Virus record (IMG/VR): IMGVR_UViG_3300032265_001314
Span: 27,272-91,271 of that record
DNA length: 64,000 nt
Direction: 5' to 3' (one strand)
Source of the DNA: a virus
Part shown: piece after piece, positions 5,107 to 36,599 of the stretch
Position numbering within the stretch: the first letter of the stretch is position 1
How the letters are laid out: every line of letters begins with the position of its first letter
Notes under the pieces: model-generated
The model's database searches: none
What the model was told of the DNA's origin: nothing
What the model saw: only the letters and a program-made list of their open reading frames with translations
Made by a program: the position numbers and the translations under genes

Positions 5107-6105
5107 CTATTTAATCTCCGTTAAGTTGTCTAGGAATGTCTTAGTACATATAGCCCAATCATATTTTTTACTGCTTGCTTCAACAATGGCACGATCACAT
5201 TCCAGAGCATATGCTATAGCTACTTCTAAATCATCATCCATATAACCATTGATTCCGTTCTCTACTACATCGACAGGTCCAGTGACTGGATAAGCTGCTA
5301 TAGGAGTACCACAAGCTATAGATTCTAACATAACCACACCAAATGTATCGCTCTTGCTTGGAAAAACAAACACATCAGAATTAGCATAATATTCTGCTAG
5401 TTCTTTACCTTTCTTATATCCTGCATAGTTTACATAAGGGTACTTTTGCTTCAATTCATCTAGGTAAGGACCATCCCCGACCAGTATCTTAGTTCCCTCT
5501 ATCTTTACGCTACAGAACTCGTCTAATCCTTTTTCTTTGCTAGCACGACTAACACAAAGTATTATAGGTCTTTTTACTTCTAACTTTTCTCTTAACTTAC
5601 TAGTAAATAGATCTCCGTCAACTCCTCTATTCCAAACTTCTAACCTTTGGAAGTCTCGATTGCTAAGTTCTGTTTTCATAGTGTTTGTAGTTACTAATAC
5701 TTTTGTTGAAAACTTATGGAACCATCGGACTAACCAGTAGCCCCAATCAACTGGCAACTTAAAATAGGTGTTTAGATATTCCGGAAACTTAGTATGATAG
5801 CTGGTGTTGTGTGGTATGCTACGTTTGTCTACTTTACAATACCAACGTGCAGCTAATCCTAATGTACCTTCGGTGGCTATATGTATAGCATCAGGTTTAA
5901 AGTTTTCTATCATAGGACCAACACGCCATATGTCTAAACTAAGCCTAACTTCAGGATAGCCTGGAGCACCTATGGTTTTAAATTGACTAGGTTCGATCAC
6001 CTGTACAATGTGTCCCCAAGACTCTAACTGTTTAACTGTGGCTCTTAGTGTAGTGACCACACCATTTATATTAGCCCAAGTATCAGTTACTAGCGTTATC
6101 CTCAT
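5107..6105 (-). CDS. GT4 (GT-B) glycosyltransferase
   Basis: NGV, HIATEG, SYHT and DVFVFPSKSDTFGVVMLESIACGTP motifs. Confidence 0.9.
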   Translation of the reverse strand: MRITLVTDTWANINGVVTTLRATVKQLESWGHIVQVIEPSQFKTIGAPGYPEVRLSLDIWRVGPMIENFKPDAIHIATEGTLGLAARWYCKVDKRSIPHNTSYHTKFPEYLNTYFKLPVDWGYWLVRWFHKFSTKVLVTTNTMKTELSNRDFQRLEVWNRGVDGDLFTSKLREKLEVKRPIILCVSRASKEKGLDEFCSVKIEGTKILVGDGPYLDELKQKYPYVNYAGYKKGKELAEYYANSDVFVFPSKSDTFGVVMLESIACGTPIAAYPVTGPVDVVENGINGYMDDDLEVAIAYALECDRAIVEASSKKYDWAICTKTFLDNLTEIK

Positions 6106-6823
6106 TTCGGATTATCTCCCAAGTACCATCATAGTTTTCTACTAGTGCCGTACAACTCTCGCACCAGTCACCACAGTTCATATATTCAATATCATTTATC
6201 TTACGTATGTTAGCGTGATGTATGTGCCCACATACTATACCTACGCACTCTTCTGCCTTAGCATATCCACTCAGTTTATCTTCGTAGCTTCCCATAAAAT
6301 TGACAGCAGATTTAACTTTGTATTTGGCCCATTGGCTCAATGACCAGTAAGGCAGTTTGAATAAACGTCTGATCTTATTAACAATAACATTAAGCCTCAT
6401 ACTAAAATCATAGGCTATAGTTCCAAAATGGGCAAGCCAAGCTGCATTTTTCATTACCACATCAAATTGATCTCCGTGTATGATTAATATAGGTCTATTC
6501 TTTGTATCAATATAAATGGTCTTTTCACGTATCTCTACATTACCAAAGAACTGATCGTCAAAGTTGCGTAATACTTCGTCGTGATTACCGCTTATATAAA
6601 CAACATCAGTTCCTTTACGTGCCTTACGTAATATCTTTTGTACCACATCGTTGTGTGCTTGAGGCCAATATATACTTTTACTCATAGCCCAGCAGTCTAT
6701 AATATCACCTACTAGGAATAGCTTTTCACTTTCTGTGTCTCTCAAAAAATTTAATAGCTTGTCTGCTTGGCACATCTTTGTCCCGAGATGCACATCTGAT
6801 ATGAAAATGCTTTTATATTTCAC
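6083..6823 (-). CDS. LpxH-like (UDP-2,3-diacylglucosamine diphosphatase family) metallophosphoesterase
   Basis: SDVHLG, GDIID, GNHD, HGD, GHIH and NCGDW motifs. Confidence 0.85.
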   Translation of the reverse strand: MKYKSIFISDVHLGTKMCQADKLLNFLRDTESEKLFLVGDIIDCWAMSKSIYWPQAHNDVVQKILRKARKGTDVVYISGNHDEVLRNFDDQFFGNVEIREKTIYIDTKNRPILIIHGDQFDVVMKNAAWLAHFGTIAYDFSMRLNVIVNKIRRLFKLPYWSLSQWAKYKVKSAVNFMGSYEDKLSGYAKAEECVGIVCGHIHHANIRKINDIEYMNCGDWCESCTALVENYDGTWEIIRNEDNASN

Positions 6824-6829
6824 TTTACC

Positions 6830-8881
6830 TCACTTCGTATTTGTACGGTATACTCCATCCCACCCTTCGCCTGGTGGATTCTTAGCATATTCATCACAGC
6901 GGTCTGCCCACATATCGTAATAGCCGTCCATCTTACCATCAAACTTTCCTTTGAGACTTAGTGCTATGCTTTTAGCAATAATAAATCTCTGAGCATTATA
7001 TGCGTTCATCATAGTATTGTGTTCATTCTTAGCATTTTTATATCCAATAGGAACTTTTGAAAGCTCACCTAATACTGTGAATATATTCACACCTTCTTTT
7101 TTACCCTTGACTGCTAGACAATCTAGAGGTAGAGTAAAGTATGCATCTTTCACGTATTCGTTTGTCTTAGGACCTATTACCATTGCGACGTGATATGGCT
7201 TGCTCTGTCCTTCAAGTCTGCTCGCCAAGTTGACGCCGTCCCCGAGACAAGTATAATCGAAACGTTGGCTACTACCCATGTTACCCACAACAACAGTATC
7301 AGTGTTAATGCCCAATCCCATACCAAATGGTGGAACACCTTCAAGCGCAACTTCTCTGTTAAATTCATCTAGGCTTCCTAACATTTCCAATGCTGTCTTT
7401 ACAGCATCCTTTGCGTGTTTTTCATTGCTAAGTGGAGCGTTCCAAAAAGCCATCTGTGCATCGCCGATGTACTTGTCCAGTGTTCCGTGATTCTCCAGTA
7501 TCTTCTTAGTCATCGCTGTCATGTAGCGATTCATTATCTTGGTTAATCCCTGAACATCGCTTCCGTAATGCTCACTAATAGTAGTAAACCCACGAACATC
7601 AGTAAACATGATTGATAGCTCAACTGAGTCTCCTCCCAATGCGAGCAGTTCGGGATTCTTCTGTAACCTAGCTACTAAGTCTGGGCTTAGGTAAGTTCCA
7701 AACTGTTTCTTTATCTGTTGCTTCTGAAGGAACTCGGATACGAATTTAACTCCGTAGGCATGCAGAGCGACCAAGATGATTCCAGATACAAAAATGGTTG
7801 CGTCGCATAACCATAGAGAGCTAGTAAAGAGATACTGACTAAGTAGCACACTCCCGCCGACCAATACAATAACTGAGGCAAGTCCAACATACATCCACCT
7901 TGTTAAAACTAGAAGTAAGATACCAGCAACAACCAATGCGATAGTTTCTGCGCCTTCTGCCCATCCGGGTCTCTGGATATTTACCCCATTTATCATAGTT
8001 CCTAGCACCGCTGCCTGTAGATCTTGTGGCCATATAGCACCCTTTGCTGTTGGTACAGGATTAGCTATACCAGCTGCGGTAGTGCCTACTATAACAACAG
8101 CACCTCCTAGATCATCTGGTAAGTTTATAGCACTGTAGCTCTTGTTAGTCTGGCTCCAGTCTATCCATATGCGTCCTAGATTGTCTGTAGTTATTGCACC
8201 AAACTTAGGTATGCGCATCTTATCAACACCGTCTTCGTTCAGTTTAATCTGCACGGTGCTATCACCTGCCATAACACGGAGAGTTTCTAGAGATAGGTTA
8301 GGATATAGCTTACCACCGCTAGTGATCAATAAGGGTATCCTGCGATTAACACCATCTATCTCAGGTAGTGTATTGATAGTTCCTACACCGACTGCTGCTG
8401 ATTCTAGCTCAGGGATGTTAGCTATGATACCCGGATAGGGTATGATAGTATCCATATATTTTGCGTTAATGACCGCGGCACCCGGATTCTTGGGAGTGTT
8501 TTTTCCCTTGATGCTAGGCACGTTGCTGAGCAAGATGGGGTAGTTTTTCATAGTATTAGCCAATATACTATCACCGCCCATACGATCGGCTTCAGGCATC
8601 ATTATGTTCCAAACGACCAAACCTGCTTTATGTTTATAGAGATCTTCTATTATACCAGCATATACATCGCGTTTAAACGGCCACTGTCCGTACTTGTCTA
8701 GTGTAGCTTCATCTATGTTAACAGTTATTATGTTGTTAGCTGTAGGAGCTTTATTAGTGATGAGAGTATCAAAATAGCGTAGCTTTACGCTTTCTACAAA
8801 GGTAGGGTTAGATAGTTTTATAGCCACTACTAATAATAAAGTTATTAGAGCGGTCCAGGGGCTCAATAATATTCTTTTCAT
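6830..8881 (-). CDS. CHASE2-domain class III adenylate cyclase
   Basis: N-terminal TM; CHASE2 (IDEATLDKYGQWPF, DGVNRRIP); three TMs; cyclase domain with MFTDVRGFT, DKYIGDA and YTCLGDGVNLASRLE (both metal Asp, adenine-specifying Lys/Thr, Asn/Arg all present). Confidence 0.93.
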   Translation of the reverse strand: MKRILLSPWTALITLLLVVAIKLSNPTFVESVKLRYFDTLITNKAPTANNIITVNIDEATLDKYGQWPFKRDVYAGIIEDLYKHKAGLVVWNIMMPEADRMGGDSILANTMKNYPILLSNVPSIKGKNTPKNPGAAVINAKYMDTIIPYPGIIANIPELESAAVGVGTINTLPEIDGVNRRIPLLITSGGKLYPNLSLETLRVMAGDSTVQIKLNEDGVDKMRIPKFGAITTDNLGRIWIDWSQTNKSYSAINLPDDLGGAVVIVGTTAAGIANPVPTAKGAIWPQDLQAAVLGTMINGVNIQRPGWAEGAETIALVVAGILLLVLTRWMYVGLASVIVLVGGSVLLSQYLFTSSLWLCDATIFVSGIILVALHAYGVKFVSEFLQKQQIKKQFGTYLSPDLVARLQKNPELLALGGDSVELSIMFTDVRGFTTISEHYGSDVQGLTKIMNRYMTAMTKKILENHGTLDKYIGDAQMAFWNAPLSNEKHAKDAVKTALEMLGSLDEFNREVALEGVPPFGMGLGINTDTVVVGNMGSSQRFDYTCLGDGVNLASRLEGQSKPYHVAMVIGPKTNEYVKDAYFTLPLDCLAVKGKKEGVNIFTVLGELSKVPIGYKNAKNEHNTMMNAYNAQRFIIAKSIALSLKGKFDGKMDGYYDMWADRCDEYAKNPPGEGWDGVYRTNTK

Positions 8882-8889
8882 ACCACTAT

Positions 8890-9426
8890 TTAGTGTTTGG
8901 TATAACTGTAACCACTACAAGGTGGTGTTAGGCATTGGATGCTTAATGATGCTGCATCAGGCACGGTAGCACTATCCTGTATTACATTTGCAGTTATGTT
9001 ATTGCCACTTAGGCTGAGATGGAAAGATTTGTTAGCAGCTCCAGTCTGTGTGATATTAGCAGTGTTATTACTAGTAGGTATATTGGGATCTAAGTTTATT
9101 GCTGCATTATAACTGCCAGTACCTGTTTGTGTTATGTTTAGTGTATTATTGCTGTTGCTATTTGTAACAGGATATGTAAGCGGAGCATTTGGTCCGGTAG
9201 GTAAATTGGGTGGGACACCAATAAATGCTGTATTATTTCCGGTACCCTCTTGTGTTATAGTGACAGCATTATTATCGCCTTTGTTAAGCACGATAGCAGA
9301 ACTATTAGTAGTATTGATTTGATCTATAGCGATGCTATTATTGTTACCGATCTGATCGATATAGACAGTATTTTGTGCATACGCATTTGATATCATTGTC
9401 AGTAGTATCACTATTGTATATCTCAT
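8890..9426 (-). CDS. secreted curlin-repeat-like protein
   Basis: Signal peptide; repeated [IV]xQxGxxNxAxI, N/Q/T/G-rich. Confidence 0.7.
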   Translation of the reverse strand: MRYTIVILLTMISNAYAQNTVYIDQIGNNNSIAIDQINTTNSSAIVLNKGDNNAVTITQEGTGNNTAFIGVPPNLPTGPNAPLTYPVTNSNSNNTLNITQTGTGSYNAAINLDPNIPTSNNTANITQTGAANKSFHLSLSGNNITANVIQDSATVPDAASLSIQCLTPPCSGYSYTKH

Positions 9427-9429
9427 TTT

Positions 9430-10548
9430 TTACTTACTTTGATTTATGGTTATCTTGGTTCCATTTTGGTTATTAACATTCTGCACTATCGTCACTCCAT
9501 CTTGTACGAGAGTGAGGGTGCTGGGAGAATCCTTATCTAGATTCACAGAAGCAACGTGTCCAGGAGCGATCCTATATAGAGTCAGATTAGTATCTACGAG
9601 CATATACTTTAATCCTGCTGCTTTATTAGGCGGGTACTTAGGCAACATCGTATTGAATGAACTAAGTTGATCGTCTAATAACTGGCTGTTTAATAAATCT
9701 AGCATATTTATTAAGAAGCTAGAGTTGTCCAAATAAGCCATATCTAGCATACTCTGTTGTGTAACGAATGCATCGTCTAGCATACCTGCTGTGTCTAAGA
9801 ATTTTTGATCTAGGAAATTGATATCCAGTGCATTTTTATTATTATCTGCTCCTTTTGCTACTTGCTTTACCTGTTTAGGAGGAGTAACAATTAATAGGTT
9901 ATTGATCTGATCGGGATTGAGATCTAATATAACAGGTTTACTGGGTTTGCTTTCTCTGCTAGCCACTGTAGTAGATTGAAAAGCTTTGTTGAGTATTATC
10001 GTGCCCATACCCGTGTTTACACTAATCTCTCCGACCTTACAGTCTTTTTCTATATCTTTAAACCCAGTAGGGCAGCTTGGAAGAAGTATGGCTAAGGTCC
10101 TGCCTAGCTCATCTACCGTGAGAGTAAAGTCTGTCCCACGAACACCGATAGTCGCGCTAGGTGTATCTATCTTTATGCTTTCAGGAGTATGTTTGGCTAT
10201 CTGACCGCTAGCAAAACGGGCAGTTCCCATCGCTACTTTCATACCAAGCTTACCAGCATCGCTTGTGGTATCATCGTAGACAAAACTATCTATTAAGAGT
10301 CTGCTCTGTTCGGTTATCTCTACTAGGCTATCATCTTTAAAAGTTATCCTAGTTTTGCTTTTAGCTGTAACGATAGTATCGTCCATTTCAACTTCTGTAT
10401 TGATATTAGTCGGGGTGCTCTTCTTGTCTCTCTGTAGTTCAGTGAGACCTGTTTGCTCTGTGATTTTACCTACAGATGTTGCTAAAGACTCAGTTTCCGC
10501 TATGAACAGAAATAGTATTGTTAGAGCCGTTGCTCTTAATTTGTACAT
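9430..10548 (-). CDS. FecR-domain periplasmic protein
   Basis: Signal peptide; FKDDSLVEITEQS and TPSATIGVRGTDF FecR motifs. Confidence 0.85.
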   Translation of the reverse strand: MYKLRATALTILFLFIAETESLATSVGKITEQTGLTELQRDKKSTPTNINTEVEMDDTIVTAKSKTRITFKDDSLVEITEQSRLLIDSFVYDDTTSDAGKLGMKVAMGTARFASGQIAKHTPESIKIDTPSATIGVRGTDFTLTVDELGRTLAILLPSCPTGFKDIEKDCKVGEISVNTGMGTIILNKAFQSTTVASRESKPSKPVILDLNPDQINNLLIVTPPKQVKQVAKGADNNKNALDINFLDQKFLDTAGMLDDAFVTQQSMLDMAYLDNSSFLINMLDLLNSQLLDDQLSSFNTMLPKYPPNKAAGLKYMLVDTNLTLYRIAPGHVASVNLDKDSPSTLTLVQDGVTIVQNVNNQNGTKITINQSK

Positions 10549-11176
10549 TGCTGTCTACCGATCCCGATTGGACTACACCTATCGTGTTAGTACTACCTGT
10601 AACACTTACACTTGCTACAAATCCGTTGGCACCAGCTGGACCATCTTGGCTTATATTAACGGCGTTGTACCCACCCACTATGCTGATATTGCTAACCGCA
10701 CCTAAGAGATTATTGCTAGTATTATTGATAAGGGTGCTGTTGTGATCACCCTGTATAGTTGTGCTGCTTTTGCTTTTTGCACCAGTAGTAGTATTAATAG
10801 AGTTGTTTCCACCTTCTGCATTGGCGACTATGATAGCATCAGTACAGGAAGATCCAGCACCGCCGCCTGCACCTGTTCCGCAGTTTACAGTTACAGTATT
10901 AACACTACCGTTTACGTTTGAAGTTAGGCTAGCGCCATCGCCTTGTATAGTAAAGTCACCTACGTTTCCACTGCCTATCTGTGAGATATTAATGATTTGG
11001 TTGTTACCGTGGAACACATTGTTTTTGAGTTCTGTACCAGCAGCATTGTTTGAGCCCGATTGCGTAATCGTGATCGTGCTGTTGCTTCCATTTTGATCCA
11101 TATAGACGCTGTTCACGGTTTGAGCGAAAGCGTTTGTAGATAAGAAAATTAATGCTGCTGCTACTAGGTATTTCAT
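10490..11176 (-). CDS. secreted curlin-repeat-like protein
   Basis: Signal peptide; many xQxGxxNx repeats; overlaps the FecR start by 59 nt. Confidence 0.7.
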   Translation of the reverse strand: MKYLVAAALIFLSTNAFAQTVNSVYMDQNGSNSTITITQSGSNNAAGTELKNNVFHGNNQIINISQIGSGNVGDFTIQGDGASLTSNVNGSVNTVTVNCGTGAGGGAGSSCTDAIIVANAEGGNNSINTTTGAKSKSSTTIQGDHNSTLINNTSNNLLGAVSNISIVGGYNAVNISQDGPAGANGFVASVSVTGSTNTIGVVQSGSVDSNVQIKSNGSNNTISVHSGN

Positions 11177-12033
11177 TTTTTAGCTCCGTCGGGCTTAGTA
11201 CTCTTAGGGACGGCAAATGCCCATAATTTTTTCGCCGCGCCCTGTTTTATCAGATCTGCTACAGCTTCTTCAGTAGCAAGACGAACAGCATAGGTACTCT
11301 GTTCGTTCATGTTGTAACCAGACTCAAGCTGTATGCTCATTGTGTTCTGATCAATAAACTTCATCACGTTTCCGCTCACGCCTGCACTAAGTATGGTTTT
11401 AGTAGCACCTGAAGTAACTAATACTTCACCAGTGGATACGCTTATTAATCGCATAACAACAGTAACCACGTCTGTCCTATACTGTGCAGAAGCACCGATA
11501 CCAAGCATAGCAGCTCCAGCGCCACCGGAAGCTATATTACTATCGTATCCAATTATGCCACCTTCGATCATAACACCCGCGACTAGTAGGGGGCTAAGTG
11601 GTTTAGCTTCTTTACCTTCGTAAGTTTCACGTTGGCTACGTATAAGCTGTCTTTCTTTAACTAGGTTGTCTAATCCTACCCTTTCAATAACTTGGAACCA
11701 TTTTCCCTTGCCAGCGTCCTGTAGTGCTTTGATAAGGAATACTTCAGCACCTTGTGTTACTGCGCTGCTCAATACGGCTACAGTGTCGTTTGGTTTCCTC
11801 TGCCCTGTCTTGTCACTAAAATTATAAACTGCGATAGTTATAGGATCTCCTGCTAATGCAGGAATATCTGCTAGCGGACTTCGTCGAAGCTTTGTTATAG
11901 GTTGGGCAGTTGGTGAAGGGACTCCACTATCGTTATCATTTATAGTATCAGCGATCCTGTCTAAGGTCTTGTTGCTGACACACCCTGCTAATAGCATCGC
12001 TACCAACGGTATCAAGAGGAAAGATTTTTTCAT
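11173..12033 (-). CDS. csgG: CsgG/HfaB-family outer-membrane secretion lipoprotein
   Basis: Lipobox LLAGC; AVYNFSDKTGQRKP, SSAVTQGA, WFQVIERVGLDNLVKERQLIR and GGIIGYDSN motifs. Confidence 0.92.
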   Translation of the reverse strand: MKKSFLLIPLVAMLLAGCVSNKTLDRIADTINDNDSGVPSPTAQPITKLRRSPLADIPALAGDPITIAVYNFSDKTGQRKPNDTVAVLSSAVTQGAEVFLIKALQDAGKGKWFQVIERVGLDNLVKERQLIRSQRETYEGKEAKPLSPLLVAGVMIEGGIIGYDSNIASGGAGAAMLGIGASAQYRTDVVTVVMRLISVSTGEVLVTSGATKTILSAGVSGNVMKFIDQNTMSIQLESGYNMNEQSTYAVRLATEEAVADLIKQGAAKKLWAFAVPKSTKPDGAKK

Positions 12034-12488
12034 TAGAATTTAAATCCTCCCATCGGAACTGATAGATTTGTTTGATTACCGCTTTGATCTGTTATGGTAA
12101 GATTAATAGTATTAGTAGACAGATCCTGCACCCAACTAATAGTGCTACCTTGGAAATCCATAGATCCTGATGTACTAGTTCCGCTAAACATAGCATTGCT
12201 TAACTGCAAACTCAGCTGTGCATATATGCGAGATTCTAAGTTGTTGAGAAACTTCTGTAGGTTGGTATTTTGCAATGCGGCTTTAACAGCGTCTGCATCG
12301 GCTTTGCGCTGCGCATCACGGGCCTGCTGTCGAGTATACTCTTCGTTCTCAATCGTGAGCACTTGTGATCCCCAACCTATGCCAGAAAATGTTGGATTCT
12401 TAAACTGGAATACCATTTCACTAGAAAACGCAGGTGCAGGAGAAATAAACACAAGGCAGGCTATTATATATGAATAGTATTTGACCAT
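12033..12488 (-). CDS. csgF: CsgF-like curli assembly protein
   Basis: Signal peptide followed by SEMVFQFKNPTFSG, the CsgF N-terminal CsgG-binding motif; directly upstream of csgG. Confidence 0.8.
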   Translation of the reverse strand: MVKYYSYIIACLVFISPAPAFSSEMVFQFKNPTFSGIGWGSQVLTIENEEYTRQQARDAQRKADADAVKAALQNTNLQKFLNNLESRIYAQLSLQLSNAMFSGTSTSGSMDFQGSTISWVQDLSTNTINLTITDQSGNQTNLSVPMGGFKF

Positions 12489-12544
12489 AACAACTCCTCT
12501 GTTATTTAAACATTATACACGTATTTAATCAGATAATATAATGA

Positions 12545-13846
12545 TTAGGATGCTTTACAGACGAATTCCTCAAACTTTCCGTTGGGAGGGAGTGGCCATT
12601 CCTTTTCATAACGTGTAACCGTATAGGTAAATGCATCACCTAGTGCCTTACGAGCGATAGCTATTAGAGCTTCTCTCTGTGTCTCCGTTATAGGATCGTC
12701 TGTTACTATCTTATATTCGATCATTTCTCTGCTGTGCTGTATGACCTGATACTTGCGTATGATAAAGTCTAGCTCGTCAAAGTTATACATACCAACCATG
12801 GGCCAATAGCGCCTACCATCCGGCTGTATGATTAGATTGCGTTCTCTACCTACTACACGCTTTAGTGTTAGCAATCCTCTACCACAACTGCATTCCGGTC
12901 CACGTTCAGCATAGTCGCCTATAGAATAGCGTATCATTGGACTAGCATAATTGTGTAGATCAGTAACTACTACCCTGCCAATAGACCCCGCTGTGACTGG
13001 AGCACCTCGATCGTCTACAACTTCTACTACGAGATTTTGATCCATAGTATGATAGAGATCGCTGTCTGGGCATTTAGCTGCGATAGAACCCATCTCTTGG
13101 CTGCTATATGAATCTTCGATATCTAATCCAAATAGCTGCTTAGTCCTAACTCTGAGGCTATCGCTAACAGTCTCGCCTATAGTTTTGATATGTTTAAGTT
13201 TGAACTGGGGAATATCCTTCTCCCATATATCTAGCAGGGCCTTTAGATTGTTGGGATATACGATGAGGATGTTAGGATTAAAGCCGCGCAATAGCCTATC
13301 TTGTTCTTTGATATCAGTCCATATATTGATAGACAGCATAGGTCCAGTTTCGTGCATTAGCGCATAAGGAGCACCCCAGTTAGATATTTCTTTATTTTCA
13401 TGGTGTCCTGCTCGTATAGAAGCTAACCTTGACTTAAAGTCTCTCTTGTGCCAAAGTATCTCTTGATAGTTGAATGCGTAGAAGAACTGTGCTACTGTAT
13501 CTGTAGCTTTGATTACTACAGGTTCGCCTGTTGACCCTGAGGTCTTGACTACGCCCGGCTTGCCGTGATCCTTTGGTACTTCTCTAGCAAAGAAACTTTC
13601 ACCTGCCGATTGTATATCTCTACGAGAAAGCAAAGGTAGGGCAGTGATATTATCTACCGATATACCTTTAGGCTGTAATCCGGACACTCTTATGCGTTCT
13701 AGGAACCATTCACTGTTCTTCACGTGATGATTTACTAATGACTTGAGCTTTACGGTCTGTATATCCCTAAGAGCCTTGGGAGTATACCACTGAAGCTGTG
13801 ATAGAGTAGCCGTTAATGTCTTGAGTGCTTCTATCTTACTTGCCAT
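12545..13846 (-). CDS. phenylacetate-CoA ligase/CapK-like adenylate-forming enzyme
   Basis: TSGSTGEP, YSSQEMG and PMIRYSIGD...GR motifs. Confidence 0.85.
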   Translation of the reverse strand: MASKIEALKTLTATLSQLQWYTPKALRDIQTVKLKSLVNHHVKNSEWFLERIRVSGLQPKGISVDNITALPLLSRRDIQSAGESFFAREVPKDHGKPGVVKTSGSTGEPVVIKATDTVAQFFYAFNYQEILWHKRDFKSRLASIRAGHHENKEISNWGAPYALMHETGPMLSINIWTDIKEQDRLLRGFNPNILIVYPNNLKALLDIWEKDIPQFKLKHIKTIGETVSDSLRVRTKQLFGLDIEDSYSSQEMGSIAAKCPDSDLYHTMDQNLVVEVVDDRGAPVTAGSIGRVVVTDLHNYASPMIRYSIGDYAERGPECSCGRGLLTLKRVVGRERNLIIQPDGRRYWPMVGMYNFDELDFIIRKYQVIQHSREMIEYKIVTDDPITETQREALIAIARKALGDAFTYTVTRYEKEWPLPPNGKFEEFVCKAS

Positions 13847-27261: not shown

Positions 27262-27758
27262 CTAGGTACTAGTTCCTCTATAGCCTTTGGTGTATAGTCT
27301 TGCACTTCAACAGAGCAGTTGATATAACGCTCTCCTGGACTAGGGTTCTGATGGATATGCCCGTGTAGGTTGTACTGTACCTTGAACATCCCACTCTCGT
27401 GGATAGGAACGTGTGTTAGAACACAATTAAACTCCGGAAACATACGCCACATCAAGACCTTCTGGAAGTTGACCTGTATGTAAGATGCTTTACCATTGTC
27501 GTGATTGCCTAAGATCAAACGCTTGCGCCCCTTGAGTCTGGGCAAGACCTTATGCCCGTGCTCAAAGTAAACGTCACCGAGGTGATAGACGATATCGCTA
27601 TCACCTACTACACTGTTCCAACGTTCTACCATATGCTCATCCATCTCTTCAACAGATGCGAACTGTGGCCGGATAAGCTCGCCACTAGTACTGTCAGTGA
27701 ACTTTAGTATGTTACTATGACCAAAGTGTGTATCGCTCACTATGAATATATTACTCAT
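27258..27758 (-). CDS. metallophosphoesterase
   Basis: SDTHFGH, HLGD, GNHD and HGHIH motifs. Confidence 0.88.
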   Translation of the reverse strand: MSNIFIVSDTHFGHSNILKFTDSTSGELIRPQFASVEEMDEHMVERWNSVVGDSDIVYHLGDVYFEHGHKVLPRLKGRKRLILGNHDNGKASYIQVNFQKVLMWRMFPEFNCVLTHVPIHESGMFKVQYNLHGHIHQNPSPGERYINCSVEVQDYTPKAIEELVPR

Positions 27759-33789: not shown

Positions 33790-33807
33790 AGCTGTATTTA
33801 TCCTGCT

Positions 33808-34896: not shown

Positions 34897-34917
34897 ACGG
34901 ATATTTATTGATAAAAA

Positions 34918-36574: not shown

Positions 36575-36599
36575 ACAGTATTTATAGTTGGTGTTTTAA

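Follow-up and report, generated by a model that had tools for sequence, protein, structure and literature searches.

The stretch of DNA considered here (the window, 64,000 nucleotides, positions 27,272 to 91,271 of the IMG/VR virus record IMGVR_UViG_3300032265_001314) carries on its minus strand, at positions 6830-12488, a cassette of six genes. They encode a curli-type secretion unit, composed of CsgF, CsgG and two curlin-like proteins, together with a FecR-like periplasmic protein and an adenylate cyclase with a CHASE2 domain. Cassettes of this kind were already published in 2022, and the one in the window is a diverged member residing in a different, much larger phage lineage. It is, on balance, probably a diverged viral type VIII secretion module with two roles, the assembly of a structure on the cell surface and the reporting of envelope conditions via cyclic AMP (cAMP).

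Organization of the cassette

The region contains six minus-strand open reading frames (ORFs), with no other long ORF competing with them, and all six score above the curated Pfam cut-offs. The first gene encodes a CsgF homologue of 151 amino acids (aa) (12033..12488; PF10614, 3e-16), and it is followed by a CsgG homologue of 286 aa, an outer-membrane pore lipoprotein (11173..12033; PF03783, 8.5e-47), and by curlin-like protein 1 of 228 aa (10490..11176; Curlin_rpt, 1e-5). The downstream part consists of the FecR-like periplasmic protein of 372 aa (9430..10548; PF04773 (FecR), 3e-11), curlin-like protein 2 of 178 aa (8890..9426; Curlin_rpt, 1.7e-10) and the CHASE2 receptor adenylate cyclase of 683 aa (6830..8881; PF05226 (CHASE2), 7.7e-36, and PF00211 (Guanylate_cyc), 5.6e-18). 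Read from csgF to the cyclase, the genes overlap by 1, 4 and 59 nucleotides (nt) and are then separated by gaps of 3 and 8 nt. The cassette is packed like an operon, since its junctions are all short overlaps or short gaps. The longest overlap, between the curlin 1 and FecR-like genes (10490-10548, minus strand), involves different reading frames and is retained in the near twin L198 (11486-11544), a 116-kb record with an identical arrangement. This overlap looks real because the signal peptide of the FecR-like protein begins at the first methionine.

According to the translations and a hydropathy scan, signal peptides that look cleavable are present in CsgF, in curlin-like proteins 1 and 2 and in the FecR-like protein. 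A search for CsgE (PF10627) in the 91-kb record and in four related records (219-265 kb) gave no match; no separate search was made for csgC and csgD. The observation of a six-gene cassette is confirmed in full, as the ORFs, Pfam matches and junctions agree with the six overlapping or abutting genes, and with their identities, proposed in an earlier note made from the sequence of the window, and the PF10627 search bears out its statement that csgE is missing.

Linkage and conservation

Scanning with an alignment of the cyclase recovered relatives on at least 542 IMG/VR contigs. From the cyclase side, linkage was counted in the best 80 of these at least 542 loci, 59 of which extend for 7 kb or more upstream of the cyclase. 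CsgF, CsgG and FecR are located upstream and co-oriented in 49 of the 59. The remaining ten include two loci cut at the locus end, three with the genes on the other strand nearby and five seemingly without them; two of these five seeming exceptions are on long records, in which CsgG lies 10-14 kb upstream on the same strand. From the CsgG side, both FecR and the cyclase are present in 43/43 loci with at least 9 kb downstream. The secretion half and the sensor half are thus almost never found apart, and the genes do co-occur across phages; a lack of such co-occurrence, which the earlier note had named beforehand as a refutation of its reading, was not seen. The distance from FecR to the cyclase among relatives ranges from -19 to 5,608 bp.

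Strong purifying selection acts on each of the six genes, as their ratios of nonsynonymous to synonymous substitution (dN/dS) are 0.02-0.07. The ratios were computed against L198, from which the genes are separated by a dS of 0.7-1.4, and amount to 0.030 for csgF, 0.023 for csgG, 0.039 for curlin 1, 0.041 for the FecR-like gene, 0.073 for curlin 2 and 0.069 for the cyclase. Curlin 2 is the most diverged of the six, with 85% amino-acid identity to its counterpart.

The secretion half: CsgF, CsgG and the curlin-like proteins

In the structures of the CsgG-CsgF complex, the N-terminal peptide of CsgF inserts into the CsgG barrel. The mature N-terminal peptide of the CsgF homologue in the window, MVFQFKNPTFSG, aligns with the E. 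coli CsgF peptide MTFQFRNPNFGG of 6l7a, and the CsgG-binding (plug) motif is retained. The CsgG homologue carries the lipobox LLAGC and matches the solved E. coli CsgG (PDB 3x2r/4uv3) at 7e-44 over residues 40-273. Judged from these alignments, the CsgG pore is likely retained, with a lining different from that of E. coli.

Behind its signal peptide, curlin-like protein 1 contains QxGxxN repeats and a cysteine pair (C99/C111), and it gives a weak match to the CsgA NCBIfam model. The AlphaFold2 model of this protein (predicted local distance difference test, pLDDT, 88; predicted template modelling score, pTM, 0.84) is all-beta and repetitive, with about nine strand-turn-strand rungs. The cysteine pair (10844-10882) is conserved across relatives and flanks a Gly-rich loop of low pLDDT. 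Curlin-like protein 2, likewise equipped with a signal peptide, has three QxGxxN repeats, a C-terminal cysteine pair (C165/C170, 8917-8934) and a weak CsgB NCBIfam match. In a survey of the slot directly after FecR, the relatives usually encode an N/Q/G/S/T-rich QxGxxN protein of 155-800 aa there, of which the 178-aa curlin 2 is a short version.

The sensor half: the FecR-like protein and the CHASE2 cyclase

The AlphaFold2 model of the FecR-like protein (pLDDT 84) consists of a FecR/PupR-type domain at about residues 27-220, a low-confidence flexible linker, a long helix and a small C-terminal beta-sandwich (313-370). Residues 27-220 resemble the C-terminal cell-surface signalling domain of PupR (6ovm) with a Z-score of 16.4 and a root-mean-square deviation of 2.5 over 135 residues (Foldseek 4e-5), and the domain resembles a Parabacteroides anti-sigma factor with a Z-score of 14.6. 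The identity of the C-terminal domain was also sought: its Ig-like matches are weak (Z 3.3-3.7), and a Foldseek match to 5ix9 was moved to the N-terminal part by VIA-align and was left unused.

The fold of the periplasmic domain is thus common to the window protein and the FecR/PupR anti-sigma regulators. The regulators, however, possess a transmembrane helix and a cytoplasmic anti-sigma domain, neither of which occurs in the FecR-like protein, and the cassette includes no extracytoplasmic function (ECF) sigma factor or TonB-dependent transducer. The only hydrophobic element in the FecR-like protein is the N-terminal signal peptide, with the FecR fold beginning at about residue 27; beyond that peptide, no 19-residue window reaches a Kyte-Doolittle hydropathy of at least 1.6. 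Since the protein has no transmembrane helix or anti-sigma domain, its output must pass to another protein. The obvious candidate for the receiver, by analogy with the pairing of such genes in bacteria, is the CHASE2 domain of the cyclase.

The cyclase has a 1+3 transmembrane topology, with a first transmembrane segment, a periplasmic CHASE2 domain at about residues 30-313, three transmembrane segments within 314-381, a class III cyclase domain at 420-600 and a tail of 80 aa. PF05226 spans residues 14-323, and the hydrophobic segments are located at 4-29 and 314-381. The catalytic set is complete: the metal-binding D428 and D474, the adenine-specifying K470 and T544, the transition-state residues N551 and R555, and K592/K594 are all present, as the earlier note had stated for the catalytic residues as a whole. 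D428, K470, D474, R555 and the lysines of the KGK motif (K592/K594) are invariant in 82 viral cyclase homologues, with position 544 occupied by T, D or S and position 551 by N or S. These two positions (7229-7252) co-vary: T544 occurs together with N551 in 31-33 of the 82 homologues, the window included, and D544 together with S551 in 49, including that of the Methylophilales phage Melnitz. Such co-variation suggests two variants of the catalytic site of the viral cyclase.

Relation to the known viral module

In podo- and myo-pelagiphages, a viral type VIII secretion module is known from Wittmers et al. (2022, PMC9599517), with the components CsgF, CsgG, CsgA/B, FecR, another CsgA/B and an adenylate cyclase. 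In their work, FecR and the cyclase stand outside bacterial curli operons, transcripts of the module appear in ocean metatranscriptomes, the module is found at all 65 GOV2.0 ocean stations, and an alphaproteobacterial origin is inferred. A 'curli operon' in pelagimyophages was reported by Zaragoza-Solas et al. (2020, PMC7029224), who proposed 'sibling capture', and Tominaga et al. (2020, PMC7198788) noted that a T4-like virus, which they assigned to marine Bacteroidetes, has curli genes. The earlier note mentioned reports of csgF and csgG homologues in some large marine myophages; this understated the case, as the complete set of six genes, with FecR and the cyclase among them, has been published for pelagiphages.

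A DNA search among cultured phages matched Pelagibacter phage HTVC008M and Melnitz. Their genes gp014-019 (HTVC008M) and gp99-104 (Melnitz) match the window cassette in function, order and orientation, running from CsgF through CsgG, curlin, FecR and curlin to the CHASE2 cyclase, and the pelagiphage module is likewise devoid of CsgE. The window proteins are 37-47% identical to the cultured pelagimyophage versions. The carriers differ: the pelagiphage modules are found in SAR11 or OM43 phages of 140-150 kb, whereas the window belongs to a carrier, most likely T4-like, of about 340-350 kb and 40-52% G+C. The podophage version has an upstream histidine kinase, which the window cassette does not have, and the second curlin of the window is short. 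In a quick maximum-likelihood tree, built for the cyclase only, the viral sequences, among them those of the window, HTVC008M and Melnitz, all group in a single clade (SH-aLRT branch support 100). The tree thus points to common descent with the pelagiphage module.

Relation to bacterial systems

Relatives of the cyclase were surveyed in 67 loci taken from 185,579 species genomes, which is a sample and not an exhaustive collection. Among these loci, CsgF and CsgG stand beside the cyclase only on contigs with 39-53% cyclase identity, all of which fall inside the viral cyclase clade. A bacterial origin of the fused cassette was rejected on this sample, and the contigs bearing CsgF and CsgG are probably phage DNA binned into metagenome-assembled genomes (MAGs). 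Contigs L084-L090, L099 and L116, with the cassette or with its FecR and cyclase, were binned in MAGs of Rhodobacteraceae, Bacteroidetes, Legionellales, Flavobacteriaceae and Pirellulales. Their cyclases fall inside the viral clade; these contigs are probably phage DNA as well, though the bins may give a hint of the host. The nearest true bacterial cyclases show about 33% identity (Salaquimonas, Rhizobiaceae, marine Alphaproteobacteria) and have no adjoining CsgG; in three genomes with these nearest cyclases, the phage CsgG query found no CsgG match. In the tree, the viral clade stands beside alphaproteobacterial CHASE2 cyclases, in agreement with PMC9599517 for pelagiphages.

Each half of the cassette has bacterial counterparts of its own. 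With bacterial curli the window shares the CsgG lipoprotein pore, CsgF with its pore-binding N-terminus and the secreted curlin-repeat subunits. It differs from the E. coli csgBAC/csgDEFG system in that CsgE was not found in the window record, and the alphaproteobacterial type of curli is without csgE as well. In seven alphaproteobacterial curli loci, whose CsgG is 42-52% identical to the phage CsgG, neither FecR nor a cyclase was found within 10 kb, whereas in the window both lie inside the operon. For the sensor half, a FecR-like gene adjoins a CHASE2 protein in about 20 bacterial loci; these loci and a published Burkholderia operon (PMC5192318) bear out the claim of the earlier note that FecR genes neighbour CHASE2 genes in bacteria. 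Both that operon ('BiofilmReg') and PA4035/PA4036, from the same paper, place a secreted FecR-domain protein beside a CHASE2 membrane sensor, similarly to the window. The cited bacterial operon has a histidine kinase as its output and a FecR protein with LysM, while the pair in the window acts through a class III adenylate cyclase and is joined to a secretion system. On the sample examined, the cassette is a phage-specific fusion of a CsgE-less curli unit and a FecR-CHASE2 sensor pair, which are separate in the sampled bacteria.

A functional parallel is found in Sinorhizobium meliloti, in which the outer-membrane protein NsrA feeds the inner-membrane CHASE2 cyclases CyaD1 and CyaD2 and raises cAMP (PMC7529298); NsrA is needed for external signals to reach these cyclases. 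The plasmid-encoded CyaD1 without its CHASE2 domain makes cAMP constitutively in this bacterium (PMC5498481). The S. meliloti system differs from the window in that NsrA does not belong to CsgG, a link through a FecR-like protein is not established for it, and its genes are chromosomal and unclustered.

The carrier phage and the genes around the cassette

The source record comprises 91,271 bp and is rated 27% complete by CheckV. Its genes include those for a ribonucleotide reductase, for an RNA ligase similar to T4 gp63 and for virion and tail-spike-like proteins. The record is taken to be of phage origin because of the ribonucleotide reductase, tail and virion-protein matches and because of its listing in IMG/VR. 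The cassette recurs in related records that measure 219-265 kb and have completeness ratings of 62-74%, and one of the related records, of 245 kb and 70% complete by CheckV, encodes a T4-type major capsid protein Gp23 (1e-82). Judging from these relatives, the carrier is most likely a T4-like phage of about 340-350 kb. The G+C content of the record is 40-52%; within the window, the first 40 kb have a G+C fraction of about 0.34-0.42 and the last 15 kb a higher one of 0.48-0.53, and the orientation of the genes switches near 41 kb. The MAGs into which close relatives were binned are of Bacteroidota and Rhodobacteraceae, no more than a hint as to the host.

Downstream of the cyclase, also on the minus strand, the window encodes an LpxH-like metallophosphoesterase (6083-6823; Pfam; LpxH NCBIfam 2e-14; PDB 5b49) and a GT4 glycosyltransferase (5107-6105; Pfam). 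The metallophosphoesterase was considered as a cAMP phosphodiesterase that would complete a synthase/hydrolase pair, and this was rejected, as its best matches are to LpxH (UDP-2,3-diacylglucosamine hydrolase) and not to CpdA. The two genes accompany the cassette in varying positions: they follow the cyclase in the window, L198 and L052, and lie between FecR/curlin 2 and the cyclase in L004 (5357-7097), L006, L042, L078 (5036-6955), L079 and L082. The pair is accessory and not part of the core, and its company with the cassette hints at a link to the remodelling of lipid A or lipopolysaccharide. Upstream of csgF, on the same strand, lies a gene for a PaaK/DVU_1553-like adenylate-forming CoA ligase (12545-13846; NCBIfam 3.7e-31, below the cut-off). 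It is retained in L198 and does not stand beside csgF in other relatives, and its dN/dS, 0.13, exceeds the values for the cassette. With this ligase as the upstream gene, the presence of an upstream histidine kinase, as in the podophage modules, was rejected.

Promoter motifs

The leader of 56 nt between the ligase gene and csgF (12489..12544, minus strand) is a candidate promoter region, with a TATAAT, two TAAATA motifs and a GAGGAG ribosome-binding site. The two boxes read TTTAAATA and ATTAAATA and flank the TATAAT, which is a perfect one. Of the full T4 late box, TATAAATA, the window has four copies, none of them near the cassette, and a T4 late promoter for the cassette was rejected on this ground. 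The TAAATA copies listed in the earlier note, at 12503, 12522 and 8887, are present, whereas the late expression suggested from them is not supported: the boxes upstream of csgF are not TATAAATA, and at 8887 the motif is made up of the curlin 2 stop codon plus the spacer. A scan for sigma-70 sites gave a count no higher than in shuffled sequence. The timing of expression cannot be read from the sequence.

TAAATA is under-represented in the window, with 30 copies (e.g., 8887-8892, 5108-5113, 33795-33800, 34902-34907 and 36579-36584) against 65 +/- 8.5 expected. Fifteen of the 21 minus-strand copies are situated within 60 nt upstream of the start of a same-strand ORF, and seven of these fifteen stand 1-5 nt before the start codon, at stop-start junctions of the type TAAATAnnnnATG.

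Proposed function and alternative explanations

The proposed mode of action starts in an infected Gram-negative cell, where all six products would enter the envelope through the Sec pathway. The CsgG lipoprotein would form an outer-membrane pore, into which the N-terminus of CsgF would plug, and the two curlin-like proteins, predicted beta-solenoids, would be exported through CsgG/CsgF and assemble on the surface. Curlin 2 would be a surface product of variable length and fast evolution. The soluble FecR-like protein would use its cell-surface-signalling fold to contact a partner in the outer membrane, or one that reflects the state of secretion, and would modulate the periplasmic CHASE2 domain, so that the cyclase sets the level of cytoplasmic cAMP, to be read by a receptor of the host. 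A relay from the envelope to cAMP via FecR and CHASE2 is plausible, as it fits the modelled FecR fold and the precedent of NsrA with CyaD1/D2, and the relay idea of the earlier note is a plausible one for the FecR-cyclase half of the cassette.

Several observations weigh against a module that both builds a surface structure and signals. Aligned to 3x2r, the constriction residues Y51/N55/F56 of E. coli CsgG are replaced by N/V/L, and the passenger of the pore is therefore uncertain. E. coli CsgA is cysteine-free, unlike the two curlin-like proteins of the window, both of which carry cysteine pairs; a periplasmic disulphide in them would matter for the transit of a narrow pore. A Foldseek search with the curlin 1 model returned no solved structure at E <= 0.001, the best match being a weak one to a beta-helix at E 0.06. 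No phage cyclic-nucleotide-binding domain (PF00027) was found in five related records of about 1 Mb, and the cAMP receptor is for this reason assumed to be that of the host. Cultures infected with Melnitz were without clumping (PMC9004378), and no experimental follow-up on any viral member was found in the literature.

The same absence of clumping would suit a pure trans-envelope relay, the form in which the earlier note had cast its proposal. In such a relay, CsgG/CsgF would be a port or receptor and the curlins tethers or ligands, with cAMP as the sole output, used for example in sensing superinfection or neighbouring infected cells, or in the timing of lysis. The FecR fold is that of domains receiving signals from outer-membrane transducers, FecR-CHASE2 pairs are common bacterial sensors, CsgE was not found, and NsrA-CyaD1/D2 offers a precedent. 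The claim that the cassette acts in this way rather than building amyloid fibres is nevertheless not supported. Both curlin-repeat genes are conserved and maintained by purifying selection (dN/dS 0.04/0.07), which argues against it, as do the QxGxxN repeats, the all-beta model of curlin 1 and the conserved CsgF, nucleator and plug, with its plug N-terminus. Furthermore, repeat proteins of 155-800 aa in the second slot of most relatives fit a surface product better than a fixed part of a relay, and nothing ties cAMP to lysis genes. A relay with cAMP as its only output is therefore rated as improbable. The lysis-timing pore proposed by Buchholz et al. (2022, PMC9004378), with CsgG/CsgF as a channel whose gate opens late, in the manner of a secretin or pinholin, and the cyclase as the timer, draws on structural modelling and synteny in Melnitz, and the lack of a detectable CsgE gate speaks for it. 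CsgG, however, resides in the outer membrane and therefore cannot depolarise the inner one; the cassette is flanked by the PaaK-like ligase upstream and the LpxH-like enzyme and GT4 downstream, not by lysis genes; no late-promoter box is present; and the conserved curlins are left unexplained, which makes this pore a very unlikely function of the module. Still harder to believe is an uptake channel (PMC7029224, PMC9599517), in which the ungated CsgG pore would admit nutrients or cofactors and FecR, CHASE2 and the cyclase would sense them. The missing CsgE gate and the association of the FecR name with iron-citrate signalling agree with it, but the FecR-like protein is without its anti-sigma part, the cassette offers no TonB-dependent transducer as a partner, and CsgF and two curlin genes would be superfluous for uptake, with the CsgF plug narrowing the pore further.

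Returning to the module that both builds a surface structure and reports via cAMP, the FecR-like protein might replace CsgE at the periplasmic face of the CsgG pore and link the CHASE2 cyclase to the condition of the pore or fibre, or to a cue passing through the pore. This extension is speculative and on the whole unlikely. If it were true, the phage would read its own outer-membrane machine, and the resulting pulse of cAMP would reprogram the host or time late events. It would also mean that a secretion system is wired directly into the sensing for a second messenger, which none of the sampled bacterial curli loci showed.

The present analysis adds that the cassette is fixed in large T4-like phages outside the pelagiphages, and that its FecR-like protein is a genuine cell-surface-signalling fold stripped of the anti-sigma half. 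The question is thereby narrowed to whether the FecR-like protein links CsgG or the curlins to the CHASE2 cyclase, and the cultured phages HTVC008M and Melnitz carry the same module. As predicted from the genes, infected cells would gain an outer-membrane secretion machine together with a source of cAMP that their hosts may lack.

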